NCBI GenBank assembly: GCA_963977015.1
Contig: CAXBMO010000005.1
Coordinates: 1-64,000 of the forward strand
Length of the DNA: 64,000 nucleotides
Direction: 5' to 3'
Origin: an uncultured bacterium
GTDB taxonomy: Bacteria; Verrucomicrobiota; Verrucomicrobiia; Verrucomicrobiales; DEV007
Part shown: positions 3,501 to 33,187 of the stretch, one piece after another
Layout of the letters: each line of letters opens with the position of its first letter
Position numbering within the stretch: position 1 is the stretch's first letter
The notes under the pieces: model-generated
Seen by the model: the letters and a program-made list of their open reading frames with translations, nothing else
The model's database searches: none
What the model was told of the DNA's origin: nothing
Translations under genes and position numbers: made by a program

Positions 3501-3665
3501 ATCGGCCAGCTGGAACATTTTGAGCTGCTCCTCCGGGGAGAGCGCCTCCGTCCGGTTGGACTTCGTGATCTTGATGACGTCTGCATCCCGCTTGTAGGCG
3601 TGGCTTGAAGCGATCAATCCTGCAATCAGGGTCGCGATGATCGAGAGTTTATTGATCTTCGTCAT
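525..3665 (-). CDS. PVC-type heme-binding CxxCH protein (dehydrogenase-like beta-propeller, HEAT repeats, cytochrome c domain)
   Basis: Signal peptide; FRPVNLEFGPDGCLYIADWYN and HGRIWRV propeller motifs; HEAT-like helices; C-terminal GCLACH with a distal Met (SFM). Confidence 0.9.
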   Translation of the reverse strand: MTKINKLSIIATLIAGLIASSHAYKRDADVIKITKSNRTEALSPEEQLKMFQLADGFVIELVASEKNGIINPIDLTFDDAGRLWTQTAEMYPLDPMGDEHNRHIRGQVADPNSKIHQHPEMVRIKRLYQLKDQGTDRIVVIDDPTKPVEGQVRQVARGLTMPQSILPYKNGVYVAHGSEMLYLSDEDGDGIYEKPTTVLTGFSFIDSHTMSHLLTRAPGGWINFSHGAMNLGEVTAVASGAKQQINYCKIARFSLDGRRLELVASGLNNIWGYQLRANGQWWGSEANDKGMSIVPMEAMTGYLGIGNDKLRAYQPMMPQLHSFRVGGTGLSGLEFSEDDAGGFPDEWKEVALLANPITNTINRVKVDRDASGAVIATHLEDLLKCEDDWFRPVNLEFGPDGCLYIADWYNKVVSHNEIPRTDPSRDKTHGRIWRVRHVSQKPGEIPNLIEAKDEDLAQSLTGPSRWEKRAAWHQIADRQATVLLPEIKDIALKADSLSSRIHAIWAYESLGEFDESFVRNLLQDEDHNIRREIIRSLASFDLAAAQVTALLGSLIEDEHCTVRSQVLRTLAEVGKADSSTIKLLITASKPPLTGKNEMGGVYERDFERFLARVAMEKYSDEVEAFLNSAELSDYPASNVLWALQSLGEESFVELFPKIWSVQDGGGIPDELFVSLATVIKNPTIQSLVAPAFSDPENYKAMLDLLLGTQDRMDSLQYKQLYGPILSALANDPETDRTKLYQAGRLLKAEELRTHALEFISQDKSAATLRIVLPILMLNPGRNMSHLKTLASDDTLSFAARLEAVDAYNRANPKAGTGIISPLLSGLEGGERSAAVNRLSMSTQGAQTLAQLVGKKVIAESDFNYLAATRMSDALRRNPTAIKLMKTWAKKKAQENSMLTEKVERYAEAIAGLEGNPIVGQGLFQGCLACHAVGDQGHSIAPALDGSAARETHALLTAIMIPDAAVEGGYELYRVIRRDGPMEEGYLSSSNEHGVTLATMGNQQVFIPRRDVLREAGVAGKSFMLAMYKDLPEQTMADLLEYISTLK

Positions 3666-9177: not shown

Positions 9178-10512
9178 TCATAGGACGGGTATCTTGATTT
9201 TGGGATTCGGTTTCTCCGTGATGTTCCTTGCGAAGACTTCTTGGCGATCGCCGTCGAAAAGCTTCAGCTGAAATTTTCCCAGGCTATCCGCGACTTCACC
9301 CGCATGGTTGATTGCCGACCAGACCACGACGGAATCGACCGGCACCACTTCGCCCAAATCCAGCTCCCAATAGGGATTCTCGACACTCATTCGAGTAGCG
9401 GAAAAATGACCAGGTTTGTCAGTCTTCCCGTCAATGCCGTATTCCGCGAGGAAGCCTTCCGCCCGCGGATCGCTCAGCCTGGCTTCGCCTTCTTTAGCAA
9501 TGTTGTAACCGCCACTCATCACCTCCACTTCACCTACCGACAGGCCCCATCGCTGGTTTCCTTGCTTCCTGATTTGCACGTAGCGAACCAGTGTCTGCCC
9601 TTCCGTCGGCGCTGTTTTGGCAGGACGTTTGCTGGTGGTTGGCGCGCCGCCGGTATCAATGGCTTTCGCGAGCAATTCCTGAAACAAGGGGGGAGCGCCA
9701 TCCCAGAGTTTGCCCTGACCAAACAGCCCCGCGTAGATGTGAACCAGCGCCTGCAGTTCCGGCTGGCGTTCCGGATCTTCGCGCAGGATGTTTGCCGCTT
9801 CCGCCAGCGCTTCCTCGGCCATGGCTCGATCCATTCCAGGATGCGGGCCAAAGGCCTCGGCAAGGGCAATTACCGCACCTTTCGAATCTCCTTTTCCCTT
9901 GTAGGCCATGGCCCGGGCAAATCCCAGCTCGTTTGCCATTCCGGGAATCTGGCGTTCGGCCTCATCGGCAAGTTTCAAAGCTTGATCCCACTCCTCTCCC
10001 CCAATCGCTGCCCACACCGCCATGACCGGGCGGATTTCCCGCTCCATGATCGGCAGCTTTTCCCACTCCGATTTCATAAATACGTAGCGTAGTTCGCCCC
10101 AGTTCCGCGTTTTGCGATAACAATCCAGCAACCGGCGTTCGGCCAGGTTTGCAAAGTTACCGGGGGCCGGGTAATAGGTGGCGCGCGTCTTATTATTGGA
10201 AACGGGCGCGAATCCGACAGCCGCTGCAGCATAGTCTCCATTGCCAAACGCCGTCATCATCTCCTCCCAAACCCGTGGAGCGGGAAAATCAATGTAATCA
10301 ACCTGATTCATCGGCACGCTGGTAGAACCCGCTTCCATTTGCCAATTGAGACGATCGCCGGCGTCTCCGGCGTAGGTTCCTTCGAGGGTGCGCCCGTCCC
10401 GCAGATAGAGGGACTGTTGGGCGGATGCGGTGATCGGCAACCCATAAACCGTGCATAGTAGACAGACTGACACCGCACGAACTCTACAGATCTGAATGGA
10501 TGGAAACGTCAT
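9178..10512 (-). CDS. Exported TPR-like protein with C-terminal discoidin/F5-8C (F-type lectin-like) domain
   Basis: Signal-like N-terminus, LRDGRTLEG beta module, helical middle, and C-terminal LSVGEVEVMSGGYNIA...GIDGKT...NPYWELDLG...SVVVW. An alternative GTG start at 10557 overlaps the upstream stop. Confidence 0.75.
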   Translation of the reverse strand: MTFPSIQICRVRAVSVCLLCTVYGLPITASAQQSLYLRDGRTLEGTYAGDAGDRLNWQMEAGSTSVPMNQVDYIDFPAPRVWEEMMTAFGNGDYAAAAVGFAPVSNNKTRATYYPAPGNFANLAERRLLDCYRKTRNWGELRYVFMKSEWEKLPIMEREIRPVMAVWAAIGGEEWDQALKLADEAERQIPGMANELGFARAMAYKGKGDSKGAVIALAEAFGPHPGMDRAMAEEALAEAANILREDPERQPELQALVHIYAGLFGQGKLWDGAPPLFQELLAKAIDTGGAPTTSKRPAKTAPTEGQTLVRYVQIRKQGNQRWGLSVGEVEVMSGGYNIAKEGEARLSDPRAEGFLAEYGIDGKTDKPGHFSATRMSVENPYWELDLGEVVPVDSVVVWSAINHAGEVADSLGKFQLKLFDGDRQEVFARNITEKPNPKIKIPVL

Positions 10513-10553
10513 GGTTGTGGAAAGGAGGTCATTGAGAATTTGGCCGCGAAGGT

Positions 10554-13463
10554 TCACGATCGGCTGCTCACAAGTTCATCCCGCCATTTGAAGAAGATGG
10601 ACTTCCCTTCAGCGATGTTCGGATGATCATGATGGCCCATCCGTTTCATCATATCCTGCAACACTTTGAGAGAGTCCATCGTTCGATTTTGCTCTCGCAG
10701 AATTTCGGCGGTTCGCAGATAAGCTTCGGTCGACCAATCGAGGTGCCCGGCAAAGTTGGCATAGACGCTCACATAGATTTTGAGGGCTTCGGCATCTTTA
10801 CCTTGTTCGTCCATACAGAGGCCAAAGGAATAGTTCGCTTCCGGCCGGGCCATCGTCCAACCGCGATTTTTGAGGTAGCTCCTCCAGGCAGCCTGGGCTT
10901 CCGGCCATTTCTTCTGCTTCGTCAATATCCGGGCGGAGTTGAGGGCCGCTTCTTCGCGCAATTGTGGATTCTCCACCTCCGTCAGGACGCGCTGGAAACG
11001 GGTGAAGGCCCGATCCTGAATCTCGGGCGCGGCGGATTCCGCCTCTAACTTGCCGAGATCGACGAGGGCAAACCCCATGGCGTCGCCCGCAGTATCCGGG
11101 CGTTCGGTAAGGATGAACTCGTAGACTTCGCGCGCCTCGTCTTTCCTCCCATTGACCTCCCAATTCCATCGGGCCAGACGAACCAGGGTATAACTACTGA
11201 GGTCCTTGCCATTGCGCTCGTAAAGCGCGTTGAGCTTGAAGAACTGCAGCCTGATCTGATCGGCCACCTCATCCTGGTTCTCGGCGTCTTCCAGCGTTTC
11301 AAGCTTGGCCATGACCAGCCACGCATCCAGCGCTCCCGGTGGATTCGCCGGATTTGTGAACGGATAGTTCTCCAGTTGCTCCAGCTTTTCCTCCATGGTG
11401 TAGTTCGCATCCAGGTAATCCAGATAACTCCCGAACAACAAGTCAACCTGAGCCGGCTCATCTCCCGCATCGGCGAAGCGATTGACGAAGTCCGTCAACG
11501 TCTTGAGACCTTCTTCGCGACGATCGAGCGCGACCAAGGCATCGAGCACCGACAAGGTGGCGTCGATCTGGTAGCTGGACTCCCAATACTTCGCCTTGAA
11601 CTCATCGTAGTAGGCTGCCGACGCTTCCCAATCCTCCGCCTCGGCGGCTGCGGCGATCAATTGACGAAGGGAATAGGCCGCAACTTCATTGCTCCCACGC
11701 CCCTCACCTTCCACCAAACGCTTTGCCTCAAGATACTCAGGGGCGATTGAGTCATAACTCTCATCCAGGGCTGCCAGGATATCGCCTTTGACATTGTGCG
11801 ATGCCGGAATTTCGGCCGCTTCCGGGAATTTTTCCTGCAGTTCCTTGATGCGAGTGAGCGCCAGTTCCAGGTCCTCCAATACGAAGTGTGAGAGACCGCT
11901 CAGGAATAATACGGGCGGTCGCATCATCGAGTTGGGATAATCCACCAGGAACTTCTCCAGGATAACAGCCGCCTCCTCCCATTTCATCAGATTCACCTTG
12001 GTCGAGCCCAGGTAGAACTCGGCAGGCTCCTTGCGTTGAGGATCCGGGTAATTCTTGAAGTAGCCTTCCAGGTGGCGCTCGGCTTCCTCAAACTTCCCGA
12101 GATGAAAGGCGCAGGCGCCGACGACGAAATCCGGAATCTCGCGGATTTCTGACCCTACATCCATCTCTGAGCGGATTTCGTGGCAAATGGTATAAGCTTC
12201 CTGGTATTCGCCTTGGAGATAAACCACCTCAACCAGAACGCGCGCAACCGAAGGCTTCAATTCGTTTTCCGGGAATTCCTCGAAAAACTTGAGCCCATAG
12301 GTATAGGCTTCGGTCCAAAACTCCAGGTTTACGTCGCAAACCACGAGGTTGTGCAAAATCGTGGCACGCTTTGGGTGATTCGGGAACTCATTGGCCACAA
12401 GCCGGTAAGTTGCCCGGGCTCCGGCGATACTGCTGAGTTGGTAATGCGCCGCCCCCGTGCCGACCAGCGTCGAGGCCCAGGATTTTCTCGTCTCCACCAC
12501 TTCCTTGTCGAGCTCAGACAGCAATTTCCTGGCGGTTGACTTGATGCTTTCGATGTCCTTGCGATTCGCCCGTTTTGCGACATCCAGCTTTTGGTTGATG
12601 TCCACCTTCCGTTCCTCGAGAGCCTTCAAAATCTCGCTTTGCGGCGCCATCAGGCTATACCACATGAGGGCCCGAATCGGCTCATCCCCTTCCAGCGCCT
12701 TGCTCGCCAGCGCCTCAAACCTGGGGTTATGCGTTGCCCGCTCCATCGGCAAATCGTCGGTGATGAGACTGGCTCGGGGCGTGATGACATCACGCACTTC
12801 AGCAAAGGGTTTGTCGTGCGACCAGTCCCACGCCAGGATCATGAAAAGCTGCTGTTGACCTTCGATTCCCACCAAATCCTCGTCAATGACCCGAACGATG
12901 AAGTCCTTCCCTTTCGCGGGCTGACCGCCCAGGATGTACGAGCGCGCGAGATTGATCGAAACGGCAAGGCGATTGATCGGGGGTTCTCCCCGCGGGTCTT
13001 CCGCGAGGGTCTTTTCGTATTTCCCCGCAGCGGCGTCGTAGTTCTTCAAGGACATCAGCGCATTCCCCCACTGCATCAGGGCGTGGACATGGAACCGGTT
13101 GGGCAGCCGCGGATCTTCCTCCCCATCGGGAACCTTGATTTTCAGGGATGAGTTGTCCCATTCCTCGTAGCAGGTCCTGAGCGGGGGGATCGCCGCCTGA
13201 TACTGCTTCTTGCGAAGCAGATACATTCCCTTGATATAATAGAAGTGGCCGAATACCGGCCCGTATTTCTCCAAGGCCCCATCGCTGAATTCCCCGATCG
13301 CACGATCGCAGAGACTGATGCCCTTGTCGAGATCCCCGGAATTCCCTGCCTGAATCGCCAAGTCGTAATATCTGACGATTTTTTCCGCGGGAGATGCATC
13401 CTGGCTCAATGCCAGGACGGGACAACAGAGAACGCTGAAGAGAAAGGAGAGTCGGTAGATCAT
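10554..13463 (-). CDS. Large exported tetratricopeptide-repeat protein
   Basis: 969 aa, signal peptide, many CpoB/BamD-like TPR units (YFKNYPD, FLVDYPNS, LQEKFPE). Confidence 0.88.
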   Translation of the reverse strand: MIYRLSFLFSVLCCPVLALSQDASPAEKIVRYYDLAIQAGNSGDLDKGISLCDRAIGEFSDGALEKYGPVFGHFYYIKGMYLLRKKQYQAAIPPLRTCYEEWDNSSLKIKVPDGEEDPRLPNRFHVHALMQWGNALMSLKNYDAAAGKYEKTLAEDPRGEPPINRLAVSINLARSYILGGQPAKGKDFIVRVIDEDLVGIEGQQQLFMILAWDWSHDKPFAEVRDVITPRASLITDDLPMERATHNPRFEALASKALEGDEPIRALMWYSLMAPQSEILKALEERKVDINQKLDVAKRANRKDIESIKSTARKLLSELDKEVVETRKSWASTLVGTGAAHYQLSSIAGARATYRLVANEFPNHPKRATILHNLVVCDVNLEFWTEAYTYGLKFFEEFPENELKPSVARVLVEVVYLQGEYQEAYTICHEIRSEMDVGSEIREIPDFVVGACAFHLGKFEEAERHLEGYFKNYPDPQRKEPAEFYLGSTKVNLMKWEEAAVILEKFLVDYPNSMMRPPVLFLSGLSHFVLEDLELALTRIKELQEKFPEAAEIPASHNVKGDILAALDESYDSIAPEYLEAKRLVEGEGRGSNEVAAYSLRQLIAAAAEAEDWEASAAYYDEFKAKYWESSYQIDATLSVLDALVALDRREEGLKTLTDFVNRFADAGDEPAQVDLLFGSYLDYLDANYTMEEKLEQLENYPFTNPANPPGALDAWLVMAKLETLEDAENQDEVADQIRLQFFKLNALYERNGKDLSSYTLVRLARWNWEVNGRKDEAREVYEFILTERPDTAGDAMGFALVDLGKLEAESAAPEIQDRAFTRFQRVLTEVENPQLREEAALNSARILTKQKKWPEAQAAWRSYLKNRGWTMARPEANYSFGLCMDEQGKDAEALKIYVSVYANFAGHLDWSTEAYLRTAEILREQNRTMDSLKVLQDMMKRMGHHDHPNIAEGKSIFFKWRDELVSSRS

Positions 13464-13469
13464 GTCGTT

Positions 13470-14573
13470 TTACTGAAGATACCTCGCGAATCTTCCGGGA
13501 TTTTTCATATATTCGTCCCCGTCAATGGATTTGCCGTTCTTCCCAACCAGGGTAAACTTTCCGCCGGTTCCCTTGGCGATTTCCGCAAACTCCCTAGCGC
13601 CAGCCTTGGTCTGCATCGCAATGGTATTGATCGTCGGCTTCCCACGACGGCGATTCACCGTCAGGATGGGACGAGGGTCGTTGCCTCCGGTCCCGTCAGA
13701 CATGAAGAAGATAGCATCCGGCGGCGGTTCCATCAGATGGGCAATCTCCAAAGCCAATCCCCAATCCGTTCCGCCAAACAGGCGGTTGTCTTCGACCGCA
13801 TCCATCGTCCTCTTCACATTTGAGCTGCTCGCTTTCAGCCACTTAGTCGTTGGCAACCGTGACGACGCGCCTCTGAAATCGTAGTTATCCCAACCGGCAC
13901 CACTTTTCGGTTCGAATTCGTATTCCTTCCCCTGGGGATCTTTCACGGTGTTTGTGGGCGGGGTTCCTGACGAAGTCAAACTCCAGCCTTTTTCTGCATA
14001 ATAGGCGCCGCCCGCAAAGAGGAGGACCTGATACTCGACTCCTTTGAGGGCGCGCAAAGCCCGTTTCAATTCATTATTGCGAAGGTCGACCTGTTGCTCG
14101 GTCATGGAACCGGAATGATCGATGACGAACAGAAAACGGTTTCCAGTCGATTTACCGCCAAAGAAGGAAGCGCCCAAGCCCATGCCGCCGCCTCCGCCAC
14201 CACCCGAGCCAAACCCGCTTCCAAAGTCCCCCTCGCCGACGCCAATCGGGCCATCGCTAAACTTCGTGACTTCCGGGGTCGCGATCTTGGCGATGGAATT
14301 CGACCGTATCATCTTCGCGATCGGTGAAGCCGCCGCAGAAGCCGAGGCTTCCTTGGCCTGCTTGACGACCTGCTTCTTCTCCAGCTTGATCTCCGTCTGG
14401 ACGACCGGCGCGACGACTTGCGCCACGATTTCCGGCTCTTCCTTAGCGGAGGGCAAAACGGCGATGAGCATGGCCACGAAGATAATAACTGCGTGTACAA
14501 CGACTGCGACCAGCAGCGCGGAAACCTTCTTGCCGCCCTTCTTTTCTTTGATTTTCGTATCGGTGGTTAGCAT
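13470..14573 (-). CDS. Membrane-anchored vWA-domain protein with TonB-like N-terminal anchor
   Basis: Basic N-terminus, TM helix containing His (VAVVVHAVII), Ala/Gly-rich linker, MIDAS residues FVIDHSGSM, GGTD and FFMSDG. Confidence 0.85.
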   Translation of the reverse strand: MLTTDTKIKEKKGGKKVSALLVAVVVHAVIIFVAMLIAVLPSAKEEPEIVAQVVAPVVQTEIKLEKKQVVKQAKEASASAAASPIAKMIRSNSIAKIATPEVTKFSDGPIGVGEGDFGSGFGSGGGGGGGMGLGASFFGGKSTGNRFLFVIDHSGSMTEQQVDLRNNELKRALRALKGVEYQVLLFAGGAYYAEKGWSLTSSGTPPTNTVKDPQGKEYEFEPKSGAGWDNYDFRGASSRLPTTKWLKASSSNVKRTMDAVEDNRLFGGTDWGLALEIAHLMEPPPDAIFFMSDGTGGNDPRPILTVNRRRGKPTINTIAMQTKAGAREFAEIAKGTGGKFTLVGKNGKSIDGDEYMKNPGRFARYLQ

Positions 14574-14598
14574 GGGATGATCGGTGTAGGGATAGGAC

Positions 14599-15045
14599 TC
14601 ACTGTGCCAGGCTCACATTCTTGATTCCGCTCGCGGCGCAGGCATTGAGCACATCAACAAAGCGTTGTTCGGGGGTTTCGTCCGCGCAGCTGATTACCAC
14701 CATGGCCTCCGAGCCGGCAATTTGAGCACTGGCGGCGTAGCGTTCCAGGCGATCGGCCAAGACCGGGACCTTTCGATCGCTCGGGTCGGAATCGACCAAT
14801 TCATCATTGATGAAGATGGAAGAATCCCCCTCGATTTTTACCATCATCTGATCAATCTCCACATCCTCGCTCTGGGCGCTGGAAACACCGGGCAGGATCA
14901 TGCTCAGGTCCGCCTCCTGCTTCATCAGCGTCGTGGTGACCAGAAAGTAGATCAGGAGCAGGAAGCCAACGTCGATGAGGGGCGAAACATCCATTGCGGG
15001 TTCCGTCGTCGAATCCATGGGATTGCCTGAGCGTCTGCGAGCCAT
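14599..15045 (-). CDS. exbD: ExbD/TolR family biopolymer transport protein
   Basis: MDVSPLIDVGFLLLIYFLV TM helix with the conserved Asp; C-terminal VDVLNACAASGIKNVSL. Confidence 0.93.
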   Translation of the reverse strand: MARRRSGNPMDSTTEPAMDVSPLIDVGFLLLIYFLVTTTLMKQEADLSMILPGVSSAQSEDVEIDQMMVKIEGDSSIFINDELVDSDPSDRKVPVLADRLERYAASAQIAGSEAMVVISCADETPEQRFVDVLNACAASGIKNVSLAQ

Positions 15046-15051
15046 CTTATG

Positions 15052-15079
15052 ATTTGAGATTTGAAATTTGAGATTCGAA
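15052..15079. repeat. Degenerate heptamer tandem repeat, 4 units
   Basis: ATTTGAG-ATTTGAA-ATTTGAG-ATTCGAA fills most of the spacer between the two exbD genes. Confidence 0.8.
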
Positions 15080-15081
15080 GG

Positions 15082-15507
15082 TCACTTCACTTCATGGGTG
15101 GAGAAGATGACCGTGTTGACGCCACCTTTCGCGGAGGCTGCCACCACCTCCTTGACTTCCTTGTGCGGCACTCGGGCATCGGCGCGAAGGTGCAGGCGGG
15201 CGTTGGGATTCTTCGCCTTCGCCTGTGTCATCATCACCTCAACCTGGTCCAGAGACAGTGGGTTGCTGGATTCATCAGCGATACTTCCATCGTTATAGAC
15301 ATTGATGATCACACGGTCGCGAATCTCCTTCGGCACTCTGGCAGATGCCGCGATGGGGATTTGAACCCGCTCGTCCTTCTTATACGTGATCAAGGTCGAG
15401 GCGATCATGAAAAAGATCAGGAGCAAGAAGACCAGGTCGATCATGGGAGACATGTCCACGTTCGGCGCGGAACCACCCATCAAATCGCGTTTTCGTTTTC
15501 GGGCCAT
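15082..15507 (-). CDS. exbD: ExbD/TolR family biopolymer transport protein (second paralog)
   Basis: MARKRKR start; VDMSPMIDLVFLLLIFFMI TM helix; LRADARVP motif. The longer ORF-track extension overlaps exbB. Confidence 0.92.
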   Translation of the reverse strand: MARKRKRDLMGGSAPNVDMSPMIDLVFLLLIFFMIASTLITYKKDERVQIPIAASARVPKEIRDRVIINVYNDGSIADESSNPLSLDQVEVMMTQAKAKNPNARLHLRADARVPHKEVKEVVAASAKGGVNTVIFSTHEVK

Positions 15508-15524
15508 CGGTTTGGGGGAATCGA

Positions 15525-16394
15525 CTAAACGCTTGGTGCGGGAGGTTGACCCGGCACCGCTGGTTCGGCCGCGGCCTGAGCCTCTGCCTGCTCGTATTGT
15601 GCGAAGATGACATCGCGCAACGTGTTCAGCAGCTTCGATGCCTCGATCTCGGTTTGGGAAACACCGTCGGCCAGCTTGTCCCGAAACGCGAAATAGAGGA
15701 AAATCGCCGGCAGCGCAACCACCAGTCCGGTCGCCGTCGTCATGAGAGCCTCGGAGATGTTTCCCGCCAACTTTCCAGGGTCTCCCATTCCGCCGCTCGA
15801 CAAGGTCGCAAACGCCTTGATCATGCCCGACACCGTTCCTAACAATCCCACCATCGGAGCGGCCTGCGAGATTACCGACAGGTAGTTGATCGTCTTGGCT
15901 CGGCCTCGATTGGAGATCTGGGAGGCGTCGGCCATCAAATCGTAGACCGTGTCGCCATCCAGCACGTGGTAGCCACGCTTCGCGGTGTATTCCAGCGCCC
16001 CATTCATAACGCGGCCAAGGCAGGAAGAATTGTTCGACGCGAGCTCCATTCCCTGCACCACATCGCCATTTGCCATCGCAGTGGAGAGTTGGGCAACCAG
16101 CGGCTCCGGGGTGAATTTGCTCTTGGTGAGATCGGTGATGAGGAAGATCGCGAGCGTGATGATGGCAATGGACATCAAACCGAGCGGCCACATGGCCCAA
16201 CCGCCTTCTTTGAGCATATCGAGAAGGTTTCGGTCCGCCGCGGAGGCGGCTTCAGCGTCCTTGACGGCTTGGCTGGATAGAACGGGTTCTTCGTCACCAG
16301 GAAGGCTAAAGTCGTCTTGAGCCAGGGCCGGGGCTGAAACAAACAGGAACGCCAAGAACGACAGAGATATTGCGAGAAATCCGGGCTTTAGCAT
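15525..16394 (-). CDS. exbB: MotA/TolQ/ExbB proton channel family protein
   Basis: GGWAMWPL, APMVGLLGTVSGMIKAF and ISEALMTTATGLVVALPA motifs; N-terminal signal-peptide-like extension. Confidence 0.95.
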   Translation of the reverse strand: MLKPGFLAISLSFLAFLFVSAPALAQDDFSLPGDEEPVLSSQAVKDAEAASAADRNLLDMLKEGGWAMWPLGLMSIAIITLAIFLITDLTKSKFTPEPLVAQLSTAMANGDVVQGMELASNNSSCLGRVMNGALEYTAKRGYHVLDGDTVYDLMADASQISNRGRAKTINYLSVISQAAPMVGLLGTVSGMIKAFATLSSGGMGDPGKLAGNISEALMTTATGLVVALPAIFLYFAFRDKLADGVSQTEIEASKLLNTLRDVIFAQYEQAEAQAAAEPAVPGQPPAPSV

Positions 16395-16445
16395 AGGTTT
16401 TTTTGAAGTTAGTGGAGTTGATAGAGGAAGGGGCGGTCGCACCGC

Positions 16446-16574: not shown

Positions 16575-18539
16575 CTACCGCGCATCCGGAAAATGCTTTG
16601 CGATGATGTTGTCCAGGGCGGTGACAGCAGCTTCGCCATGTGAATCATTGTAGACCGACAGCCACTTGTGATAAAAACCATGCCCGAATAGGGTATTCAT
16701 TTCCATCAGGGTTCGTCCCGGGTTTTCGCAACGGGGATACATAATTAGAGCGTGCTTCTTGAATTCACTGGCCGTCATAGGGATGAGGGTTCGATAGTGT
16801 TTCAGTCTTTCATACACGGCTGGTGACGGTGATAGATCATTTCTCTTGATCGCCCTCGCCAAACTGGATTCATCCTCCGGATAGACTCCCCAGAATTCAA
16901 ACAGCGGCCGCAAATCATACCCTGTTGCCATGCAAAAGCGGAGGATTCGACCATCGGTTGGGTCGTCATTCACGTTGGCCGGGAAACCCTTGCCCTTTCG
17001 GTAGTTCTCATGGTCTTCAGCCGCAAACCGCAACAGAGGGTCCCAACCAAACAGCTTGGCCATATCCCCATAGTGCCCGTAGCCACGATGCTGATACTTC
17101 ACTTCATCTCCGGGGCGGTTGGTGGTGTTTCTCGGTTTTCCCTTCCGGAAGTTTTCGGTAATCATGCGGTCGACCGCGGCCCGTTCGATGCTGACATTAT
17201 CGCCGCGTCCCATCGACCGGCTGAACGCAACATCCAGATCAACTTCGAACCCCTGATTATGGATATAAACATAGGGAAAATTCACCAACGCTTCGGTCTC
17301 TCCTTTGAATTTGGTGATTCTTTCCATGTGACCCATCTCGTGAAACAGCTCGTGCTTGGCGAATTGAGGGCCCTTCAAAAACCAGTGATCCTTGTTTCCG
17401 TTCTCCTTCTCCAGCGGATTCCAGTTGTAGTTCGATTGAGGGTAGCCGGGAAAAAAGGCGCCCCCGCGCATAATCACGTCGATCTGATGATAGAGCACGA
17501 CTTTGGATCTGACTTTCGAACGCCCCGTGATTTCGGAGATCAGGTCCATACACTTATCATAGTCAGCAGTCAGTTTATCCGGCGTCTTGTAGTTGTAGAT
17601 CCAGGCGGTTGGCACTTGCATCATGAACTTCTCAGACTCGAAATCCGCCCAAGGAGCTGACTTTTTCCTCTCGACCCTCAACCAGTCCTGAAGAGTCGTT
17701 TTGTCGAACGAGCGGGCGGAATAGAACGGGGCTTCAACGATGTTCCTCGCATAGATGTCGCAGATTCCGCCATCGCCATCCGGAGGAACCTCCAGATAAA
17801 CGCCACCTCCCAATGGATGGGTGATGAGAATGCGATCCTGTTTGATCGGGTAGACGATCGAAATACGGTCGAGCCGTTTGATGACCGGCTTTTTTGCCAA
17901 ATCCCAGGAGTGAGCGCCGACACGAATTCCATAGCCTTTTTTCACGATGCCGGAAGGGACTTTCAGCTCGGCAATCGTGCCCGGAGCCACATACCATCCG
18001 GTGCAGCGGCGAGCCGGCGCGTCGTCAGTAGTGAGAGGCGCCCCATCAGGTGGCAGTTGGGAGGCATCGATTTTGATCTTGTAGACCTTTCGCGGATCCC
18101 GTGGAGGATCGACTTTACCGGGAAAAAAGTCAGCACACTGAAAGGCCCTGGAATCGAGATCTCTGGAGTGGTCTTTGACGTTCTCAAGATGATAAGCGTG
18201 ATCCAGCAAAGCCTGCTGCAATTGAAAAATAGCATGCTCCAATTCCTTGCCCTTCCGATCTCTCCGCGAGAACCCGCCTTTCGTTTCTTCATTCAAAAAC
18301 AGAGGCTGGTGAATTTCATCGTAAGCTGACACCACATCCAACGCCTTGGTCACCAGCCTAATATCTTTGGCAAGAGCGGAGCCCTGTTTGATGATGTCTG
18401 CTTCAACCCCGGAAAGCTCCTCTGGAGTCAGCGCTTCTCTCTTGTTCAAGTGAGCCGATAATTGATCGAGCGATTCCTCAAGGCCAGCTGCATTCAGCGA
18501 TGTGCACGAGAGGAGTAAGGCCGGTAATAGGTATTTCAT
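16575..18539 (-). CDS. Secreted M60-like (enhancin/mucinase family) zinc metallopeptidase
   Basis: Signal peptide; TGWYVAPG, HPLGGGVYL and APWADFES motifs; gluzincin LFHEMGH followed by GETEALVN. Confidence 0.88.
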   Translation of the reverse strand: MKYLLPALLLSCTSLNAAGLEESLDQLSAHLNKREALTPEELSGVEADIIKQGSALAKDIRLVTKALDVVSAYDEIHQPLFLNEETKGGFSRRDRKGKELEHAIFQLQQALLDHAYHLENVKDHSRDLDSRAFQCADFFPGKVDPPRDPRKVYKIKIDASQLPPDGAPLTTDDAPARRCTGWYVAPGTIAELKVPSGIVKKGYGIRVGAHSWDLAKKPVIKRLDRISIVYPIKQDRILITHPLGGGVYLEVPPDGDGGICDIYARNIVEAPFYSARSFDKTTLQDWLRVERKKSAPWADFESEKFMMQVPTAWIYNYKTPDKLTADYDKCMDLISEITGRSKVRSKVVLYHQIDVIMRGGAFFPGYPQSNYNWNPLEKENGNKDHWFLKGPQFAKHELFHEMGHMERITKFKGETEALVNFPYVYIHNQGFEVDLDVAFSRSMGRGDNVSIERAAVDRMITENFRKGKPRNTTNRPGDEVKYQHRGYGHYGDMAKLFGWDPLLRFAAEDHENYRKGKGFPANVNDDPTDGRILRFCMATGYDLRPLFEFWGVYPEDESSLARAIKRNDLSPSPAVYERLKHYRTLIPMTASEFKKHALIMYPRCENPGRTLMEMNTLFGHGFYHKWLSVYNDSHGEAAVTALDNIIAKHFPDAR

Positions 18540-18594: not shown

Positions 18595-19410
18595 TTATTG
18601 GTAGGATGCGTAGTAGCGCCCCAAGGCAGTCAACGATCCATCCTGCCTCAGGAGCGCGGATGGGCCGAGGGCGGCGCTTTTTTCGCCGGCTGAAAACCAG
18701 GCATAACGCTCCACGAAATCCAATTTATCCAGCCTCGGCAAAGCGGCCTTCATGAATTGCTGGACCCGCCATGGTGTGTGCTTGTTCTCGGCGAGACTTT
18801 TGGCGTTCCAATCGGCCACCCCGAATTCCGTGATCCAGATTGGTTTTCCATAGAGCTGATGAACCTTTTTGAGATGGCTCACGAGGCTCTCGACATTGGG
18901 GCCGCCATACCAGTGGACGGTCACGAAATCGACCCGCAGGTTCTGCTGTCTCGCCTTGCGCATGAATTCCTGCATCCAGGGTCTGTCCGCATGCACGGCG
19001 GCGGGACTCCCTAGCCGAAGGTTGGTTTTCATAAGGTAAGGCCAAGCCTTCAGCGCGCGATCGACGGGCAAGTTGGCCTGCTTCTTACTGTCGGGTTCGT
19101 TGAAGCCGAGGAGGTGCCGGTGCCGATGGGGTTTTCCGGCGGCCAACTCACGGATGACGGTCTTGAAACCTTCATCGATGCCCCAAAAGCCATAGATCAT
19201 GGGGACGAATTCGACTCCGGCGGGTTCCGGCTCGGGAATCCTGGCGCCCCAGGAGTAATGCCAACTCACGTTCAGGGAATCGACCTTGGCTTTCCAGGTT
19301 TTCGTGTTCCCCTTCTTGGTTGTGATACAGACTCCCTTCTTCGATCCGGCGATGGCATCACACGGAAGTAGATAGAGAAGGGCGCAAATCAGGGTAATAA
19401 TCGCTCTCAT
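18595..19410 (-). CDS. Glycoside hydrolase family 128-like (putative beta-1,3-glucanase), secreted
   Basis: SWHYSWG, EFVPM, catalytic LGFNEPD and PIWITEF, and VERYAWF motifs; signal peptide from ATG 19410. Confidence 0.88.
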   Translation of the reverse strand: MRAIITLICALLYLLPCDAIAGSKKGVCITTKKGNTKTWKAKVDSLNVSWHYSWGARIPEPEPAGVEFVPMIYGFWGIDEGFKTVIRELAAGKPHRHRHLLGFNEPDSKKQANLPVDRALKAWPYLMKTNLRLGSPAAVHADRPWMQEFMRKARQQNLRVDFVTVHWYGGPNVESLVSHLKKVHQLYGKPIWITEFGVADWNAKSLAENKHTPWRVQQFMKAALPRLDKLDFVERYAWFSAGEKSAALGPSALLRQDGSLTALGRYYASYQ

Positions 19411-19475
19411 GAAAACCTTCCGAGATTGCCCTGTGCACCTTGGATCCTTGTTCCATCTGGATTCACGACGCCGCA

Positions 19476-21011
19476 TCAGTCCTTTTCCACGATGATTCGG
19501 ATCTGGTCGGTCCCCGGTGGCACTGCCCGCATACTCATCTGCACGGTGAAGCCATCCTCCAGGATCTCGACCGGGTCTTCACCAACCTCGAGCCCGCGGG
19601 CTATCGCCTCGTAAATCGCATCCGGTTGCACGCCCTTGACTCCCAGGCGCCGATCGGACCTCCCGAGCGTCGCGCCCGAGGTTTGAATCCCCAAAACTCG
19701 GCCATCAAAACGTATCGCCCCCCTGGAGGCCAACTTATCGGGCAGGGGGCTCAGGTGAACGAGGTAGGAGGTGACTTTGCTTCCTTTCCGCACCTTGCCC
19801 GATTTCCGTTCCGCTGCGATGTCGACCGAAACATCGCGCGCCAACGTGACCGCGAAACGTTCCCGAAATAGGAGAAGCTTACCGCTAAGCTCAGGCGTTA
19901 TTTCGCGCGGTGGCTTCTCCACGACCAATACTGAATCACTGTGCGACACCACGTCTCCGGTTCGATTCGGCGGAGTGGCGAAGAGATCCTGGCGGAACGG
20001 CATCGGCTCCATTTGACCTGTTTTCAGGTTCAAGCGGGAAGTCTGCCCCGCGACCAGCTCAAGTGGTGAAGCCTGCCCTGCCAATCCGGCCGTGACGCGC
20101 CCCTCGTAGACGTGAACCGCAGCATCGCCTTTGGTGTTGGCTGTGACGGCGAATTTGGTTCCCAGATCGATCACCTCTAACGCATTGGCATCGACCCAAA
20201 ATCCCTCCGCGGCCGGAGTAACCTCAGCAGCCAGGTGACCTGAGATCAACCTGAGGTGAACTCCGTCAATGATGGAAAAACGCGCGGGCCCTTCAATCGC
20301 AACCAACACTCCGTTCAGGTCGATCTCGACGCGTGCCGACTTGACTTCGTGCTCGCCGGAATACACGTCCGCTCCCACTTTCCAATCTGCGTCCTCCTGG
20401 GAAACTCGACGGACGCGGCCCAACAAAACTTCGTCCGCAACCGGATCCGACTTGGGCGTTTTGGGCTCCTCAATGTTCGTGACCACAGCCGTTCCTTCTT
20501 GGTCCTCATTCGAAGGCTCGGGATGCGCGGGCATCACTTTCGGCTCCTCCTTCTTCGGATCCGCATTTTCCACCAAATGAGCAGCGGGCTGAGACTCTGG
20601 AACCGGTGGCACAGGGGGTTCCGGCTCAACCGGCACGGAGTCAGGGTCTGAGACAGCCTCCGGAGTTTCCTCAACCAGATTCGGCACCGTCTTCGAATCG
20701 CGCCTGCTGACCACAAACCATAAGGTTGCCAAGCCAATCACGACCGCCGCCGCCACCGCGATGATTCCGTGCCATTGAGAACGGCTTGTGGGGAGTTTGG
20801 TCCGATGATTCGCACCGCCTTTGATTCCTCCCAAAGCTGCGGAATCCGAGATCGCCAATTCCAGTTCGCATCGCAGCAAATACCGTTGCCGAGCCTCCTC
20901 CGAACCGGCAAGCCACTTACGCAGTTCCGCCGCCTCATCCTCGCCCAGCTCTCCATCGGTCAACAGACGATCCATCAGCTCTTCAGCCCGGTTGTTTTTA
21001 GAATCGGTCAT
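19476..21011 (-). CDS. FecR-domain anti-sigma factor
   Basis: N-terminal anti-sigma helix (LRKWLAGSEEARQRY), single TM helix, Pro/Glu linker, IEGPARF and VIDLGTKFAV...VHVYEGRV motifs; ATGA overlap with the sigma gene. Confidence 0.9.
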   Translation of the reverse strand: MTDSKNNRAEELMDRLLTDGELGEDEAAELRKWLAGSEEARQRYLLRCELELAISDSAALGGIKGGANHRTKLPTSRSQWHGIIAVAAAVVIGLATLWFVVSRRDSKTVPNLVEETPEAVSDPDSVPVEPEPPVPPVPESQPAAHLVENADPKKEEPKVMPAHPEPSNEDQEGTAVVTNIEEPKTPKSDPVADEVLLGRVRRVSQEDADWKVGADVYSGEHEVKSARVEIDLNGVLVAIEGPARFSIIDGVHLRLISGHLAAEVTPAAEGFWVDANALEVIDLGTKFAVTANTKGDAAVHVYEGRVTAGLAGQASPLELVAGQTSRLNLKTGQMEPMPFRQDLFATPPNRTGDVVSHSDSVLVVEKPPREITPELSGKLLLFRERFAVTLARDVSVDIAAERKSGKVRKGSKVTSYLVHLSPLPDKLASRGAIRFDGRVLGIQTSGATLGRSDRRLGVKGVQPDAIYEAIARGLEVGEDPVEILEDGFTVQMSMRAVPPGTDQIRIIVEKD

Positions 21012-21556
21012 GACAAGTGGCCCTCCCGGAGGTCTTTGGAGTGCGCATTTTCGATGCAGTCCAACAATTGATCTTTCGTCTTCTTCAGCATTTTATGAAT
21101 GGCACGGCGACTTCGTTTCCACACTCCAGCCAACTCGACGATCTTGAACCCCTCCGCATAGAGATGACGGAGCAGGCTCGTCTGCCGTTCGCTGAGTTTC
21201 GCCAAACAGTCGTCCAGATGAGTCCGCACGGACTCAAGTGGCTTTTCCAGTTCGACATACGAATCCGCAATCGCGAAAAGTTCGTCATCTTCCAAAAAGA
21301 GCGGCACGCGTTTTTGCGACCGGCGCCATTCCAGAACGACGAACCGGGTAATGGCGAGGGCCCACGCTCCGAAGTTGCTTCCCTCCTCGTATTCATCGAA
21401 TTTCCGCCAAAGCCGGGCCGCCACGTCCTGCAAAATATCGTCCACGGCATCCCGATCCTGGGTCAACGCGTAGATGAGCCCTTGAATGCGTTTTTCGTGG
21501 GAAACAAAGAGTTTGGTGAAAGTTTCACCGCGCTCGAATGGCACCAATTCAGTCAT
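21008..21556 (-). CDS. ECF sigma-70 factor, Rhodopirellula/Verrucomicrobium type
   Basis: Region 2 DDILQDVAARLWRKFDEY...NFGAWA; region 4 CLAKLSERQTSLL. Confidence 0.93.
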   Translation of the reverse strand: MTELVPFERGETFTKLFVSHEKRIQGLIYALTQDRDAVDDILQDVAARLWRKFDEYEEGSNFGAWALAITRFVVLEWRRSQKRVPLFLEDDELFAIADSYVELEKPLESVRTHLDDCLAKLSERQTSLLRHLYAEGFKIVELAGVWKRSRRAIHKMLKKTKDQLLDCIENAHSKDLREGHLS

Positions 21557-21845: not shown

Positions 21846-23543
21846 CTACGCCGCCGTTGGCGTCGAACGTTGCGTTTTCTGATTCTCGCGAATCTTGACC
21901 AGCTTCTTCAGCATTCCGAACCAGAACGGCGCGCCGAGCGTCAACGCGAAAGCCGTAACGAGCCAGCCGAGCAACATTTGCAACAGCAACGACCATTTGA
22001 AGTACTGAGGAAGGAAATAACGACGACCGAGTTCCACCAATTCCGGATACTTTGACTTGGCATCGATCAAGAGAAACTCGATTTCCTTCTCCAGGCTTTC
22101 CGCGGAACGGTTGTCGTACTTTGGGTCTCGCCGGACACGCTCGATCGCTTCCTCTCCCAGCTCATAGCGCTCTGACTCCGAAAGCTTGTCCAAATAGGCA
22201 AGCTTCAACAACTTTTTGAAGCTCTCCCGCGTTTTCTCCTCATCCACACCGTTCTCAATCATTGCCCTCGACTCTTCCAACTGAGTTTCAGCATCGAAAA
22301 GCAACGATTCGACTCGGGCAATCTCGCCGCCGTTTCCATTCTCGCCCACCAACTCTACCAATTTCAAAAAATTCCCTGCCACTTGGCCCACCATTTGGGG
22401 ACTGGCCGAATCATAACTCTTGCTTTGTTTGCCGGCTTGAATGCGCTTCAGCCTCTCTTGAGCTTCCACTTTCTGAGCATAGATTTTTGACTTCTTTGCT
22501 TCGATGATCTCGGTAAATACCTCCAAGACAAGGGTCAGCTTTTCTCCCTGATTTTGATCCGTTTCAACCGCGGCGCCGAACCAGGTTTTGGTATTCCCAA
22601 TCCAACCCTTGAAGGCCTGGAGATCAGAGCCGTCCCAGCCAATTGGAATGTCGCTGGCGTGCAATCCCCCCAACAGGACCTCCACCTCCGACTGGATCGC
22701 CTCCCGCTGCTCGGCTTGGTCATAGACCGTGTAATAGCCCGATTCCAAAAACATGGGTTCAGTCGATGCCGCATCACTTGGCTGGGGACCGGGATTCTCT
22801 CCACTTTGCTGGCTGTTCCCGTAGATGGCCTGCCAGTTTTGCTGCTTTCTCGCACTGTTCGCAGCGACCTCGGCATACTCTTCGGCAAACTTCGTCATTG
22901 CGGGGAGCTTGACCTTCCCGTCATAGATCGTTTCCGCAATCCTGATCGAATCCGCGTTGAACGCAGCCGCGACAAAAATCGCGATGAAAAAGGTGATCCA
23001 CTTCACGTGCCCGGAATACCAATCCGAAACGTCTTCCATGGAGGAGTCGAACCATTGCTCCAGGTTTTGCTCGAAGCGGACATACGTCTGGGTCGCGTCA
23101 TCCACAGAATCTCCAACCTCACGTTTTGCCCGCTGATAGAGCGAGGCAATGTTTTCTCCAATCGGTGAACCATCGGTCAGCTTGATCAACTTTTCGATGT
23201 CATCGACTTCCTCATTAAATTCTGCTTTGACCTTGTCCGCCTTCTTCAAGCCCTGAATCAGCGCCGGAACGAACATCGACGTGTCAATCCAATTGGGCTT
23301 CTTTCCTTTCACTCCATCCGGGTCCACCGACGGTTTGATGAGCGGCGCGTCATACAGCAATTCGGTCACGTCGGTGCCGTCTTTCAGCTGTCCCAGCATG
23401 TTCTTCATCCCCTTTTCGAGCTTCTTCGCTCGCAGGGACATGAGCTGAGCGACATACCCGGTCACGGCGGTAACGATAAGACTCAGCAAGAGGTAAACCA
23501 ATGCCAGCCCTATCGCTATATCGATGATTGGAGAATTCAACAT
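21846..23543 (-). CDS. Uncharacterised membrane protein
   Basis: N-terminal IDIAIGLALVYLLLSL, central WFDSSMEDVSDWY plus a TM helix, C-terminal GWLVTAFALTLGAPFWFGML; start set to ATG 23543. Confidence 0.8.
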   Translation of the reverse strand: MLNSPIIDIAIGLALVYLLLSLIVTAVTGYVAQLMSLRAKKLEKGMKNMLGQLKDGTDVTELLYDAPLIKPSVDPDGVKGKKPNWIDTSMFVPALIQGLKKADKVKAEFNEEVDDIEKLIKLTDGSPIGENIASLYQRAKREVGDSVDDATQTYVRFEQNLEQWFDSSMEDVSDWYSGHVKWITFFIAIFVAAAFNADSIRIAETIYDGKVKLPAMTKFAEEYAEVAANSARKQQNWQAIYGNSQQSGENPGPQPSDAASTEPMFLESGYYTVYDQAEQREAIQSEVEVLLGGLHASDIPIGWDGSDLQAFKGWIGNTKTWFGAAVETDQNQGEKLTLVLEVFTEIIEAKKSKIYAQKVEAQERLKRIQAGKQSKSYDSASPQMVGQVAGNFLKLVELVGENGNGGEIARVESLLFDAETQLEESRAMIENGVDEEKTRESFKKLLKLAYLDKLSESERYELGEEAIERVRRDPKYDNRSAESLEKEIEFLLIDAKSKYPELVELGRRYFLPQYFKWSLLLQMLLGWLVTAFALTLGAPFWFGMLKKLVKIRENQKTQRSTPTAA

Positions 23544-23699
23544 AACGCTGGCGTAGCATGGTCGGAATAATGGCGTTAAAGCAAGGATAAAATCCTGAAA
23601 AGACGGCTGCTGATGGGCCTCGATTTTCGGGAGACCGTCCCATTTTTCAGCCGTTGCTTCCCCATTTGCGTTGACCAAAAGTCCCAGCTAGTCTCTGCC

Positions 23700-31725: not shown

Positions 31726-31835
31726 CTCAGTTCCTAGCATCGCGCCTAGTCTATACCACGATATCCGCAAGGGAAGTGGAGAATTGTCCACGTCGAGAGC
31801 CTTTGCAATTTGGAGGCAGATACTCATAATGAGGA

Positions 31836-33143
31836 ATGCTCCTTCGAATTTTCGTTATTTTTGTAGCCTTGGTTAATCCACTCAACGCGGTGGACTGGCC
31901 GGAATTTCGCGGCAAGGATCGTACGGGAATCTGGAATCAACCTGGAGTCCTCCAATCGTTCCCTGAAGGAGACGCGCCGCTGAAGAGAGTCTGGACTGCT
32001 CCGGTTGGCGCAGGATACAGCGGACCGACGGTCGCGGGAGACCATGTGTATCTGATGGACCGCGGGCCGGCAGGAAACCGAGCTCAGCTTGAGCGAATCG
32101 TCTGTGTCGACCGAAAGACCGGCGCCCAATCCTGGGTTCACACCTATCCCTGCGTTTACTCCGACATCGGCTATGCGTATGGGCCTCGGGCAAGTGTCAC
32201 CATTCGAGATGGCAAAGCCTGGGCGCTCGGAACAATGGGGCATCTTCATTGCCTGGATGCAAAAACCGGGTCCGTGATTTGGGCTCATGATTTGCGGCAG
32301 AACTACACGGTTGACCTCCCCATTTGGGGACTCACGGCGTCTCCACTCGTGGTCGGCGACGTGGTGGTCGTCCAACTTGGCGCCATGGCCGACAACGCCT
32401 GTGTCGTGGCGTTTGAGAAAGACACCGGCAAGGAAGTCTGGCGCGCGTTTGACGACAAGGCATCCTACGTTTCGCCGATCATGATTCGGCAGGGAAAAAC
32501 CGACGTGATGGTCGTCTGGACGGGCTTTCGAATTGCGGGAATGAATCCGGCTGATGGGAGTGTCTATTGGGAACTCCCGACTCGTCCTGCCAAAATGCCG
32601 ATCAACGTTCCCGGTCCGGCGCTCAACGAGGATGGCACGCTCATGTTTTTGTCCGTTTTCTATGATGGTTCGCGAATGATCGAACTCGATCCGGACAAGC
32701 CTGCGGCCAAGGAACTCTGGCATCGTCAGGGAATCAACGAACGCAAGACCGACGCACTTCATTGCATGATCAGCCCGCCGTATCTTGCCGATGGCTACGT
32801 CTTCGGAATCGACAGCTATGGCCAAATGCGTTGCCTCGATCCCAAGACCGGTGACCGAATCTGGGAAGACCAAACGGCAGTTCCCTATGGGCGCTGGGGC
32901 ACAGCTTTCATGGTCAGAAACGGAGACCAAACCTGGATGCTCAACGAACGCGGCCAACTCATTATCGCCCGTCTGACGGAAAAAGGGTATGAGGAAATTG
33001 ATCGCGCGAATTTGATCGAGCCGACGACCCCGCTCAACCAGCGAAAGGAAGGCACCGTTCTCTGGTCTCATCCGGCCTTTGCCGGGACCCAGATTTTTGC
33101 GCGAAACGATCGCGAACTGATCTGCGTTGAGCTTGCTGAATAA
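31836..33143 (+). CDS. PQQ-binding-like beta-propeller (BamB-like) exported protein
   Basis: Signal peptide then DWPEFRG; repeated CLDAKTGxxxW blades; WSHPAFAG at the C-terminus. Confidence 0.92.
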   Translation: MLLRIFVIFVALVNPLNAVDWPEFRGKDRTGIWNQPGVLQSFPEGDAPLKRVWTAPVGAGYSGPTVAGDHVYLMDRGPAGNRAQLERIVCVDRKTGAQSWVHTYPCVYSDIGYAYGPRASVTIRDGKAWALGTMGHLHCLDAKTGSVIWAHDLRQNYTVDLPIWGLTASPLVVGDVVVVQLGAMADNACVVAFEKDTGKEVWRAFDDKASYVSPIMIRQGKTDVMVVWTGFRIAGMNPADGSVYWELPTRPAKMPINVPGPALNEDGTLMFLSVFYDGSRMIELDPDKPAAKELWHRQGINERKTDALHCMISPPYLADGYVFGIDSYGQMRCLDPKTGDRIWEDQTAVPYGRWGTAFMVRNGDQTWMLNERGQLIIARLTEKGYEEIDRANLIEPTTPLNQRKEGTVLWSHPAFAGTQIFARNDRELICVELAE

Positions 33144-33187
33144 GGGGGCCAAACAGCCCAGGCTCGATTAGCTCCAGGGTTCAAAAG

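Follow-up and report, generated by a model that had tools for sequence, protein, structure and literature searches.

A conserved motor cluster of Verrucomicrobiota with a von Willebrand factor A force transducer, probably related to the MUL1 locus of Akkermansia muciniphila

Introduction

Among the machines that draw on the proton motive force (PMF), those nearest to the system considered in this article were described in 2025 in bacteria of the Planctomycetes-Verrucomicrobia-Chlamydiae (PVC) group, where force transducers built around the von Willebrand factor A (vWA) domain are encoded beside a tolQ-like gene, two different tolR-like genes and a gene for a tetratricopeptide repeat (TPR) protein (PMC12204202 section 8, Mol Biol Evol 2025). 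We analyse here a six-gene cluster of this type, exbB-exbD1-exbD2-vWA-TPR followed by a gene related to the Mul1B family, in a stretch of 64,000 nucleotides (nt) from an uncultured bacterium of the Verrucomicrobiales (contig CAXBMO010000005.1, positions 1 to 64,000, assembly GCA_963977015.1), which we call the window. The published proteins are tethered to the inner membrane, share the topology of TolA and TonB, and bear a histidine-containing (SHLS/His) helix together with a motor box; an AlphaFold 3 (AF3) model places the transducer histidine at the edge of the motor. They have been traced to the Ton/Tol stock and reported in Verrucomicrobia and Planctomycetes, their function being given as unknown, with no deletion phenotype and with gliding offered as a guess (PMC12204202).

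The second system that matters here is MUL1 of Akkermansia muciniphila. In PMC12570417, MUL1 is described as a mucin transporter and mul1A (amuc_0544) as a 'mucin transport gene'; a transposon mutant of mul1A makes no use of mucus glycans, yet it colonises germ-free mice. The MUL genes of this organism have also been presented as coding for 'pili and a periplasmic protein complex' (PMC12418764). According to PMC13174399, aquatic Akkermansiaceae lack MUL1 synteny, and the locus is taken as a gut adaptation. In none of the papers listed by our literature search did the MUL genes appear beside vWA proteins, TolQ, ExbB or force transducers, although Davey 2023 and Hughes 2025 may make that link; the supplement of PMC12204202 makes no mention of Akkermansia. 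What is added here is the membership of the sixth gene in the Mul1B superfamily and a similarly ordered gene table from A. muciniphila, both of which suggest that the genetics of the Akkermansia MUL genes and the vWA force transducers of 2025 concern the same type of machine.

A six-gene cluster conserved in Verrucomicrobiota

The six genes (Table 1) are co-oriented on the minus strand and separated, from exbB onward and by their coordinates, by gaps of 11, 36, 25 and 6 nt, while the last junction, between the TPR gene and the sixth gene, is either a 4-nt overlap or, with the ATG start at 10512, a gap of 41 nt; this is the compact arrangement, with gaps of at most 41 nt, that had been noticed in a first-pass annotation made from the letters of the window. 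Two gene starts admit of variants: exbB has an alternative GTG start at 16442, its product having a signal-peptide-like N-terminus, and the sixth protein is present in the protein collection as a 420-residue (aa) form that starts near 10440. Between positions 4300 and 22000, promoter-like sites number 8 where chance alone would give 5.9, and terminator-like sites 22 where it would give 20.4; with counts at chance level the ends of the operon stay undefined.

The six-gene cluster is real and conserved. When each species was represented by a single genome, a scan with the vWA alignment yielded 79 loci, 26 of which, one per assembly and all labelled Verrucomicrobiota, display the order ExbB-ExbD-ExbD-vWA-TPR; this gene order is more than a matter of chance, because it recurs in 26 independent assemblies. 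Six further loci, with distant vWA relatives, also have ExbB and two ExbD genes adjoining the vWA gene, and their labels are uncultured Verrucomicrobiales, Chthoniobacter, Terrimicrobiaceae, Vicinamibacteraceae (acidobacterial), Pirellulaceae and Planctomycetaceae (planctomycete). Conservation of the neighbourhood, a check that the first-pass annotation had named, is found at two levels, the core order and, in 32/79 loci overall, the motor with its vWA gene, the latter in several phyla by label.

Motor and force transducer

The fourth gene product is the one to set against the published transducers. Its AlphaFold model, built with 19 homologues, displays a helix at residues 15-39 within which His27 is located, a stretch where the model confidence (pLDDT) stays <50 over residues 47-134, and a confident domain at approximately 140-367. 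Comparison of this protein with the Protein Data Bank (PDB) by Foldseek gave 157 matches at E<=1e-3; the top matches listed are vWA-domain proteins, and the listed fold matches include BatB (3ibs) as well as a Bat-like protein (4jdu). Residues D152, S154, S156, T269 and D293, which make up the metal ion-dependent adhesion site (MIDAS), are invariant in 19/19 homologues, and Pfam recognises no TonB C-terminal family in the protein. The description first given of it, a histidine-containing anchor, a flexible linker and a vWA domain with an intact MIDAS, was right, since model, fold matches, MIDAS invariance and His27 agree.

By its features, its gene order and the description given in the paper, the cluster is a member of the published class of vWA force transducers (PMC12204202). 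It has the His-bearing N-terminal membrane helix, as do all of the 32 motor-linked proteins; a disordered linker, comparable to the linkers of some 100 residues that mark the class, with a predicted motor box at residues 47-56; a vWA fold that replaces the C-terminal domain of TonB or TolA; and a vWA gene that adjoins one tolQ-like gene and two distinct tolR-like ones, accompanied by a TPR gene. In the PVC examples of that work the motor is preceded by the TPR gene, whereas in the window and the 26 core loci the TPR gene comes downstream of the vWA gene, with the Mul1B-like gene after it; the TPR-upstream arrangement is found in L064, L071 and L072. The central proposal of the first-pass annotation, a PMF-driven machine in which vWA replaces the TonB C-terminal domain, agrees with topology, MIDAS, synteny, the membrane histidine and the lack of a receptor, and it was correct, but it had already been published in section 8 of that paper.

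With the Ton system the cluster shares a PMF motor of the ExbB/ExbD type with its membrane aspartate, a His-bearing N-terminal helix and a long linker. A conserved, strand-prone segment flanked by prolines, at residues 47-56, lies just past the membrane helix, which is where TonB has the D-box that binds ExbD (PMC10907165); by analogy, the segment is likely to be the counterpart of the D-box, and is predicted to be an ExbD-binding box. There are differences too. The window has no TonB C-terminal domain and two different ExbD genes, and no TonB-dependent receptor goes with the cluster: Pfam finds none of the TonB_dep_Rec, Plug, TolB and Pal/OmpA families in the 45 window proteins, as the first-pass annotation had remarked for TonB-dependent receptor, TolB and Pal, and around the 26 core loci, where 125 flanking genes out of 126 were covered, none of these three turned up, nor did a TonB C-terminal domain.

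The motor subunits themselves stand apart from the named systems. Against NCBIfam, ExbB scores 61.9 bits with TolQ and 50.3 bits with ExbB, both far under cutoffs that exceed 200 (206.2 for the ExbB equivalog), and the ExbD equivalog yields 38.8 bits against a cutoff of 152.95. Judged by these profiles, ExbB and both ExbDs are equivalogs of no named system. For the ExbB of the window, the solved chains that come nearest, about equally so, belong to ExbB, with 42 bits, and to TolQ, with 34 bits. As had been seen from the letters, both ExbDs keep the aspartate of the transmembrane helix: that of ExbD1 aligns with the aspartate of solved ExbD and is invariant in 24/24 sequences (D26), and that of ExbD2, whose nearest solved chain is TolR, is likewise aligned and invariant in 23/23 sequences (D25). 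A complex prediction with ExbD1, ExbD2 and residues 1-145 of the transducer, in which the ExbB pentamer was left out, gave a score of 0.00 and a mark of 0.32, and counts neither way.

We may picture the machine as follows. The inner-membrane motor would be made of ExbB together with both ExbD paralogues, paired as a heterodimer, and the 367-aa protein would be a force transducer akin to TonB and TolA, the His-bearing helix of which docks on the motor, while its Pro-flanked, strand-prone segment would bind ExbD outside the membrane. The disordered linker, of about 90 residues, would span the periplasm, and the metal-dependent (MIDAS) vWA head would grip a partner. Both the contact between motor and transducer and the ligand of the vWA head are what we infer from this set of features.

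The membrane histidine is present in 32/32 motor-linked proteins, from 31 loci and the window (30 were aligned, and those of L076 and L078 read by eye; L004 and L012, cut on their upstream side, were set aside and two short rows dropped), and in only 4/45 of the vWA family members whose flanks, as far as they were covered, show no motor gene. Such unlinked paralogues (L029-L063 and others; for example L033:8972-11071) retain an intact MIDAS, mostly lack the histidine, often carry a long N-terminal extension and co-occur with the full cluster in one genome: L006, L009 and L033, which come from a single assembly, comprise the full cluster plus extra vWA paralogues. Tandem pairs of vWA genes are seen in L038:6391-8633, L071:8449-10984, L045, L049, L070 and L077, and in L023 the vWA genes are divergent from the motor operon, the main copy being devoid of the histidine.

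The TPR protein, the Mul1B-related protein and MUL1

The fifth gene product, read as a 969-aa TPR protein from the outset, matches both Pfam TPR families and TIGR02795 (tol_pal_ybgF), the latter at 108.4 bits, over its cutoff of 90.1; it also matches CpoB. Its gene holds the position of mul1A and is present in all 26 core loci.

The sixth protein is modelled as a small beta domain, followed by TPR-like helical repeats at residues 56-258 and by a beta sandwich at 283-418. It had been described as a TPR plus discoidin-like protein, a description that stands in view of this sandwich: the discoidin match is weak in the window protein, falling below the cutoff (Table 1), and passes in homologues, at 35.7 and 31.9 bits. 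The N-terminal two-thirds match NF052542, 'Mul1B family putative transporter subunit', at 1.7e-11 and 43.9 bits, under the family cutoff of 75, and 20/20 aligned relatives of the protein match the same model. Searched with a profile of the conserved N-domain, a set of 1.84 billion representatives yielded 1932 hits at E<=1e-3, of which 214 reach E<=1e-10; when 81 of the 150 listed hits (proteins of about 270-380 aa) were scanned in turn, 72 matched NF052542 and 47 reached its cutoff, with a maximum of 259.6 bits. A hidden Markov model (HMM) built from 30 bona fide Mul1B members returned the window protein at 1.6e-23 and also matched the sixth gene of 21 loci. On the strength of these reciprocal profiles, the sixth gene is clearly homologous to the Mul1B family.

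Other searches reached less far. Similarity search with the protein returned 5 proteins, itself included, and 9 with its alignment; Foldseek with the Mul1B-like model gave only 7 matches at E<=1e-3, all of them generic TPR or BamD-like, and no SusD-like match is among the matches listed; in the ESM Atlas all clusters returned bear a TPR label and come from Verrucomicrobiota and Planctomycetota. While its N-terminal domain is kept, the sixth protein varies by subgroup in its C-terminal module, with discoidin in the group of the window and, in the L003-L021 group, a beta module with weak Laminin_G matches. Bona fide Mul1B-family hits, of some 290-370 aa, are without a C-terminal beta module.

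We can now turn to A. muciniphila itself. In its gene table (PMC11480725, supplement), Amuc_0543, Amuc_0544 and AMUC_RS02980, all hypothetical, are followed by Amuc_0546, 'biopolymer transporter ExbD/TolR', by Amuc_0547, hypothetical, and by Amuc_0548, 'MotA/TolQ/ExbB proton channel', the run Amuc_0543-0548 being flanked by unrelated genes. The likeness with the window, by product names alone, is that mul1A sits beside an ExbD/TolR and a MotA/TolQ/ExbB gene in the same order. MUL1 is presumably the locus Amuc_0543-0550, and we take Amuc_0543 to be Mul1B. The sixth protein of the window differs by its extra discoidin module and its lower score with the family model. Because the sixth gene is Mul1B-related and the order of products in A. 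muciniphila is alike, the cluster is most likely a relative of MUL1. The A. muciniphila locus is not among the 79 loci returned by the vWA-alignment scan; some of these loci are labelled Akkermansiaceae or uncultured Akkermansia sp. This distribution suggests a wide occurrence, within the order, of divergent clusters resembling MUL1. Within such a machine, the 969-aa TPR protein would serve as a scaffold in the periplasm, and the Mul1B-related protein, which carries a lectin-like module, may be the part that binds the substrate.

Surroundings of the cluster

The genes around the cluster are listed with it in Table 1. On the downstream side, 412 nt away, lies the cassette-A-like giant pseudopilin, which has a GspK-like N-terminus (GspK 1e-3) and is a possible partner. 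It is the only protein of the Verru_Chthon cassette present after the cluster in the window; cassette-A-like homologues are found downstream of the cluster in L004, L007, L010 and L014, and a whole D/B/C/A pseudopilin cassette follows it in L007 (15828-21071), L010 and L014, the D, B and C genes of L007 being located between the cluster and the A gene. A secretin gene comes directly after the Mul1B-like gene in L024 (15643-18165) and in L027 (15741-18251, with a TPR N-terminus), and an ATPase of the type II secretion system (T2SS) or type IV pilus (T4P) kind is encoded upstream of the cluster in L032 (3126-5336). Such secretin and ATPase neighbours are candidates for the missing outer-membrane route.

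Table 1. Genes of the cluster and of its immediate neighbourhood (positions in the window)
Feature	Positions	Strand	Basis
ExbB/TolQ-like proton-channel subunit, 289 aa	15525-16394	-	Pfam MotA_ExbB 1.4e-24
ExbD1, ExbD/TolR-like, 143 aa	15082-15513	-	Pfam ExbD 3.6e-21
ExbD2, ExbD/TolR-like, 148 aa	14599-15045	-	Pfam ExbD 1.1e-19
vWA protein, 367 aa	13470-14573	-	VWA_2 22.4 bits, under cutoff 27
TPR protein, 969 aa, signal peptide	10554-13463	-	many Pfam TPR families
Mul1B-superfamily protein, 459 aa	9178-10557	-	F5_F8_type_C_2 23.5 bits, under cutoff 27.8
Verru_Chthon cassette protein A-like giant pseudopilin, 1145 aa	5329-8766	-	TIGR02600 9.5e-39, 133 bits, under cutoff 332
M60-like peptidase	16575-18539	-	Pfam; upstream, co-oriented
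Glyco_hydro_cc hydrolase	18595-19476	-	Pfam; upstream, co-oriented
FecR-like protein	19476-21011	-	Pfam; upstream, co-oriented
Extracytoplasmic function (ECF) sigma factor, Rhodopirellula/Verrucomicrobium family	21008-21556	-	TIGR02989 129.8 bits, over cutoff 124.55

On the upstream side, the set made of M60 peptidase, hydrolase, FecR-like protein and ECF sigma factor is specific to the window, the ECF/FecR pair alone also adjoining the cluster in L002. The peptidase and the glycoside hydrolase give a hint about the substrate, as do sulfatases, encoded within three genes of the cluster in 5/26 loci, and the subgroup-dependent C-terminal module of the sixth protein.

Some features of the window lie further from the subject. 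All of its genes from 525 to 21556 are on the minus strand, and Rfam at the gathering threshold has no match across the 64 kb. Two very large DUF7133/HEAT proteins are encoded at 525-3665 (minus strand) and 41202-45743 (plus strand), one with a cytochrome c domain and the other with FG-GAP repeats. In two plus-strand proteins, of 782 aa (23613-25961) and 1125 aa (58032-61409), only a C-terminal AhpC/TSA or thioredoxin-like domain is recognised, the N-terminal 600-950 residues matching no family. Three long open reading frames are without a Pfam match at E<=0.05, namely those at 21846-23678 (minus strand, 610 aa), 52250-55573 (plus strand, 1107 aa) and 31824-33152 (minus strand, 442 aa); the 610- and 1107-aa ones have no NCBIfam match either.

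Weighing the possible functions

What would such a machine be for? As the cluster belongs to the published transducer class and is a likely relative of MUL1, the reading that we favour, at a probability of roughly 0.55, is PMF-powered capture and import of large glycans or glycoproteins over the outer membrane without a TonB-dependent receptor; the relationship with MUL1 therefore points to an engine for polymer uptake and not to a gliding motor. Of the three functions that the first-pass annotation had left side by side, the pulling in of macromolecules is now the best fit, given the kinship of the sixth gene with Mul1B and the place of A. muciniphila mul1A in a similarly ordered cluster; adhesion and envelope remodelling are less favoured. 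The import conduit might be of the pseudopilus/secretin type; both the substrate and the outer-membrane route are inferred.

Several observations weigh against this view and should be kept together. Falling under the family cutoff, the window protein and its closest relatives must be seen as a sister subfamily of Mul1B and not as members. The Mul1B-like gene is present in 20/23 core loci that reach far enough (a contig end cuts off its position in L001, L008 and L015) and absent in L017, L025 and L026. AMUC_RS02980, which lies between mul1A and the ExbD/TolR gene, is hypothetical by its product name and has read counts far under those of its neighbours (PMC11480725). Flanking genes vary widely by lineage, and pilus or secretin neighbours accompany only 7/27 clusters, in about 4 lineages. 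The association of histidine and motor reduces, in the tree of vWA domains, to 3 well-supported independent contrasts (5 on all branches), with the histidine going the same way in about 2 and the opposite way in 0; with a sign test p of 0.5 the pattern is suggestive, not statistically proven. Finally, a single copy per assembly and TPR modules of the CpoB/YbgF type fit a housekeeping, Tol-like role equally well.

That last point leads to an envelope system of the Tol-Pal kind, where motor and vWA transducer would serve to tether the outer membrane or to reshape it, division being one instance; the TPR protein would be a CpoB-like regulator, and uptake defects would be indirect effects. The succession of motor, transducer and TPR protein, which resembles tolQ-tolR-tolA, is shared with Tol-Pal, as are CpoB/YbgF-type modules that pass the tol_pal_ybgF cutoff (108.4 against 90.1 bits); ExbD2 has TolR as its nearest solved chain, there is one cluster in each of the 26 assemblies, and transducers of this class derive from the Ton/Tol stock (PMC12204202). 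The window departs from Tol-Pal, however, in that it has a vWA head instead of TolA domain III and an extra Mul1B-like protein with lectin-like modules, and that TolB and Pal are missing from it as well as from the 125 flanking genes. Moreover, an A. muciniphila mutant in mul1A remains viable and colonises germ-free mice, its failure being specific to mucus glycans (PMC12570417). We hold this explanation to be rather unlikely, all the same the best placed after import.

The Bat aerotolerance operons also combine membrane-anchored vWA proteins (BatA/BatB) with a neighbouring TPR protein (BatC). These operons also encode a MoxR ATPase and a protein with DUF58, and are not known to include ExbBD; as neither MoxR nor DUF58 turned up among the window proteins, this assignment was rejected. 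In Myxococcus, the gliding machine brings together the AglRQS stator, GltD/E, which are TPR proteins, and CglB, a vWA adhesin, and it is to AglRQS that the first-pass annotation had seen a special likeness. Here one TolQ-like and two TolR-like subunits, both of the latter with their aspartate, would move a vWA arm and TPR proteins for adhesion or traction; stator composition and the presence of vWA and TPR proteins in the wider machine are indeed common to both, and gliding is the role guessed at in PMC12204202. As a special one, the likeness finds no support here, the stator being approximately as close to TolQ (61.9 bits) as to ExbB (50.3 bits) and no Glt partner being found: the window has no Glt-type genes apart from a chance-level match of GltJ to the FecR-like protein (E 0.0019; 17 bits, with the cutoff at 450). 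Its vWA protein is anchored in the inner membrane, unlike CglB, an outer-membrane lipoprotein, and the Mul1B link points to uptake. A. muciniphila, which bears the like-ordered cluster, is called non-motile in PMC12418764. A role in gliding thus seems quite improbable.

Secretion deserves about as little credit. A motor for a T4P-like or T2SS-like apparatus, the vWA head of which would grip pseudopilins or a secretin for gating or retraction, is brought to mind by the pseudopilin cassette genes after the cluster in the window, L007, L010 and L014, by the secretins after it in L024 and L027, by the T2SSE ATPase upstream in L032, and by the words 'pili and a periplasmic protein complex' used for the MUL genes (PMC12418764). 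Against it stand the small share of clusters with such neighbours (7/27) and the fact that the direction of transport cannot be read from sequence. Verru_Chthon cassettes exist in many copies per genome, and adjacency by chance is possible.

Conclusion and outlook

If import is the right reading, one may tentatively go further, at a clearly lower degree of confidence: the cluster might be a general, receptor-free engine for polymer import in Verrucomicrobiales and related PVC bacteria, with the motor pulling, via the vWA transducer, on the complex of TPR protein and Mul1B-related lectin or on a pseudopilus/secretin conduit, and so dragging glycans or glycoproteins into the periplasm. This would bear on the way in which, without receptors of the SusC/D type, large polysaccharides and glycoproteins are taken up in Verrucomicrobia and Planctomycetes. 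Akkermansia MUL1 would in that case be one member, adapted to the gut, of a machine both old and widespread, and not an invention specific to the gut, and the vWA force transducers of PMC12204202 would gain their first phenotype. Should the link between the two be right, the existing Akkermansia mutants and assays would make the mechanism of a new branch of Ton/Tol motors directly testable, and MUL1-like uptake would reach well beyond the gut.

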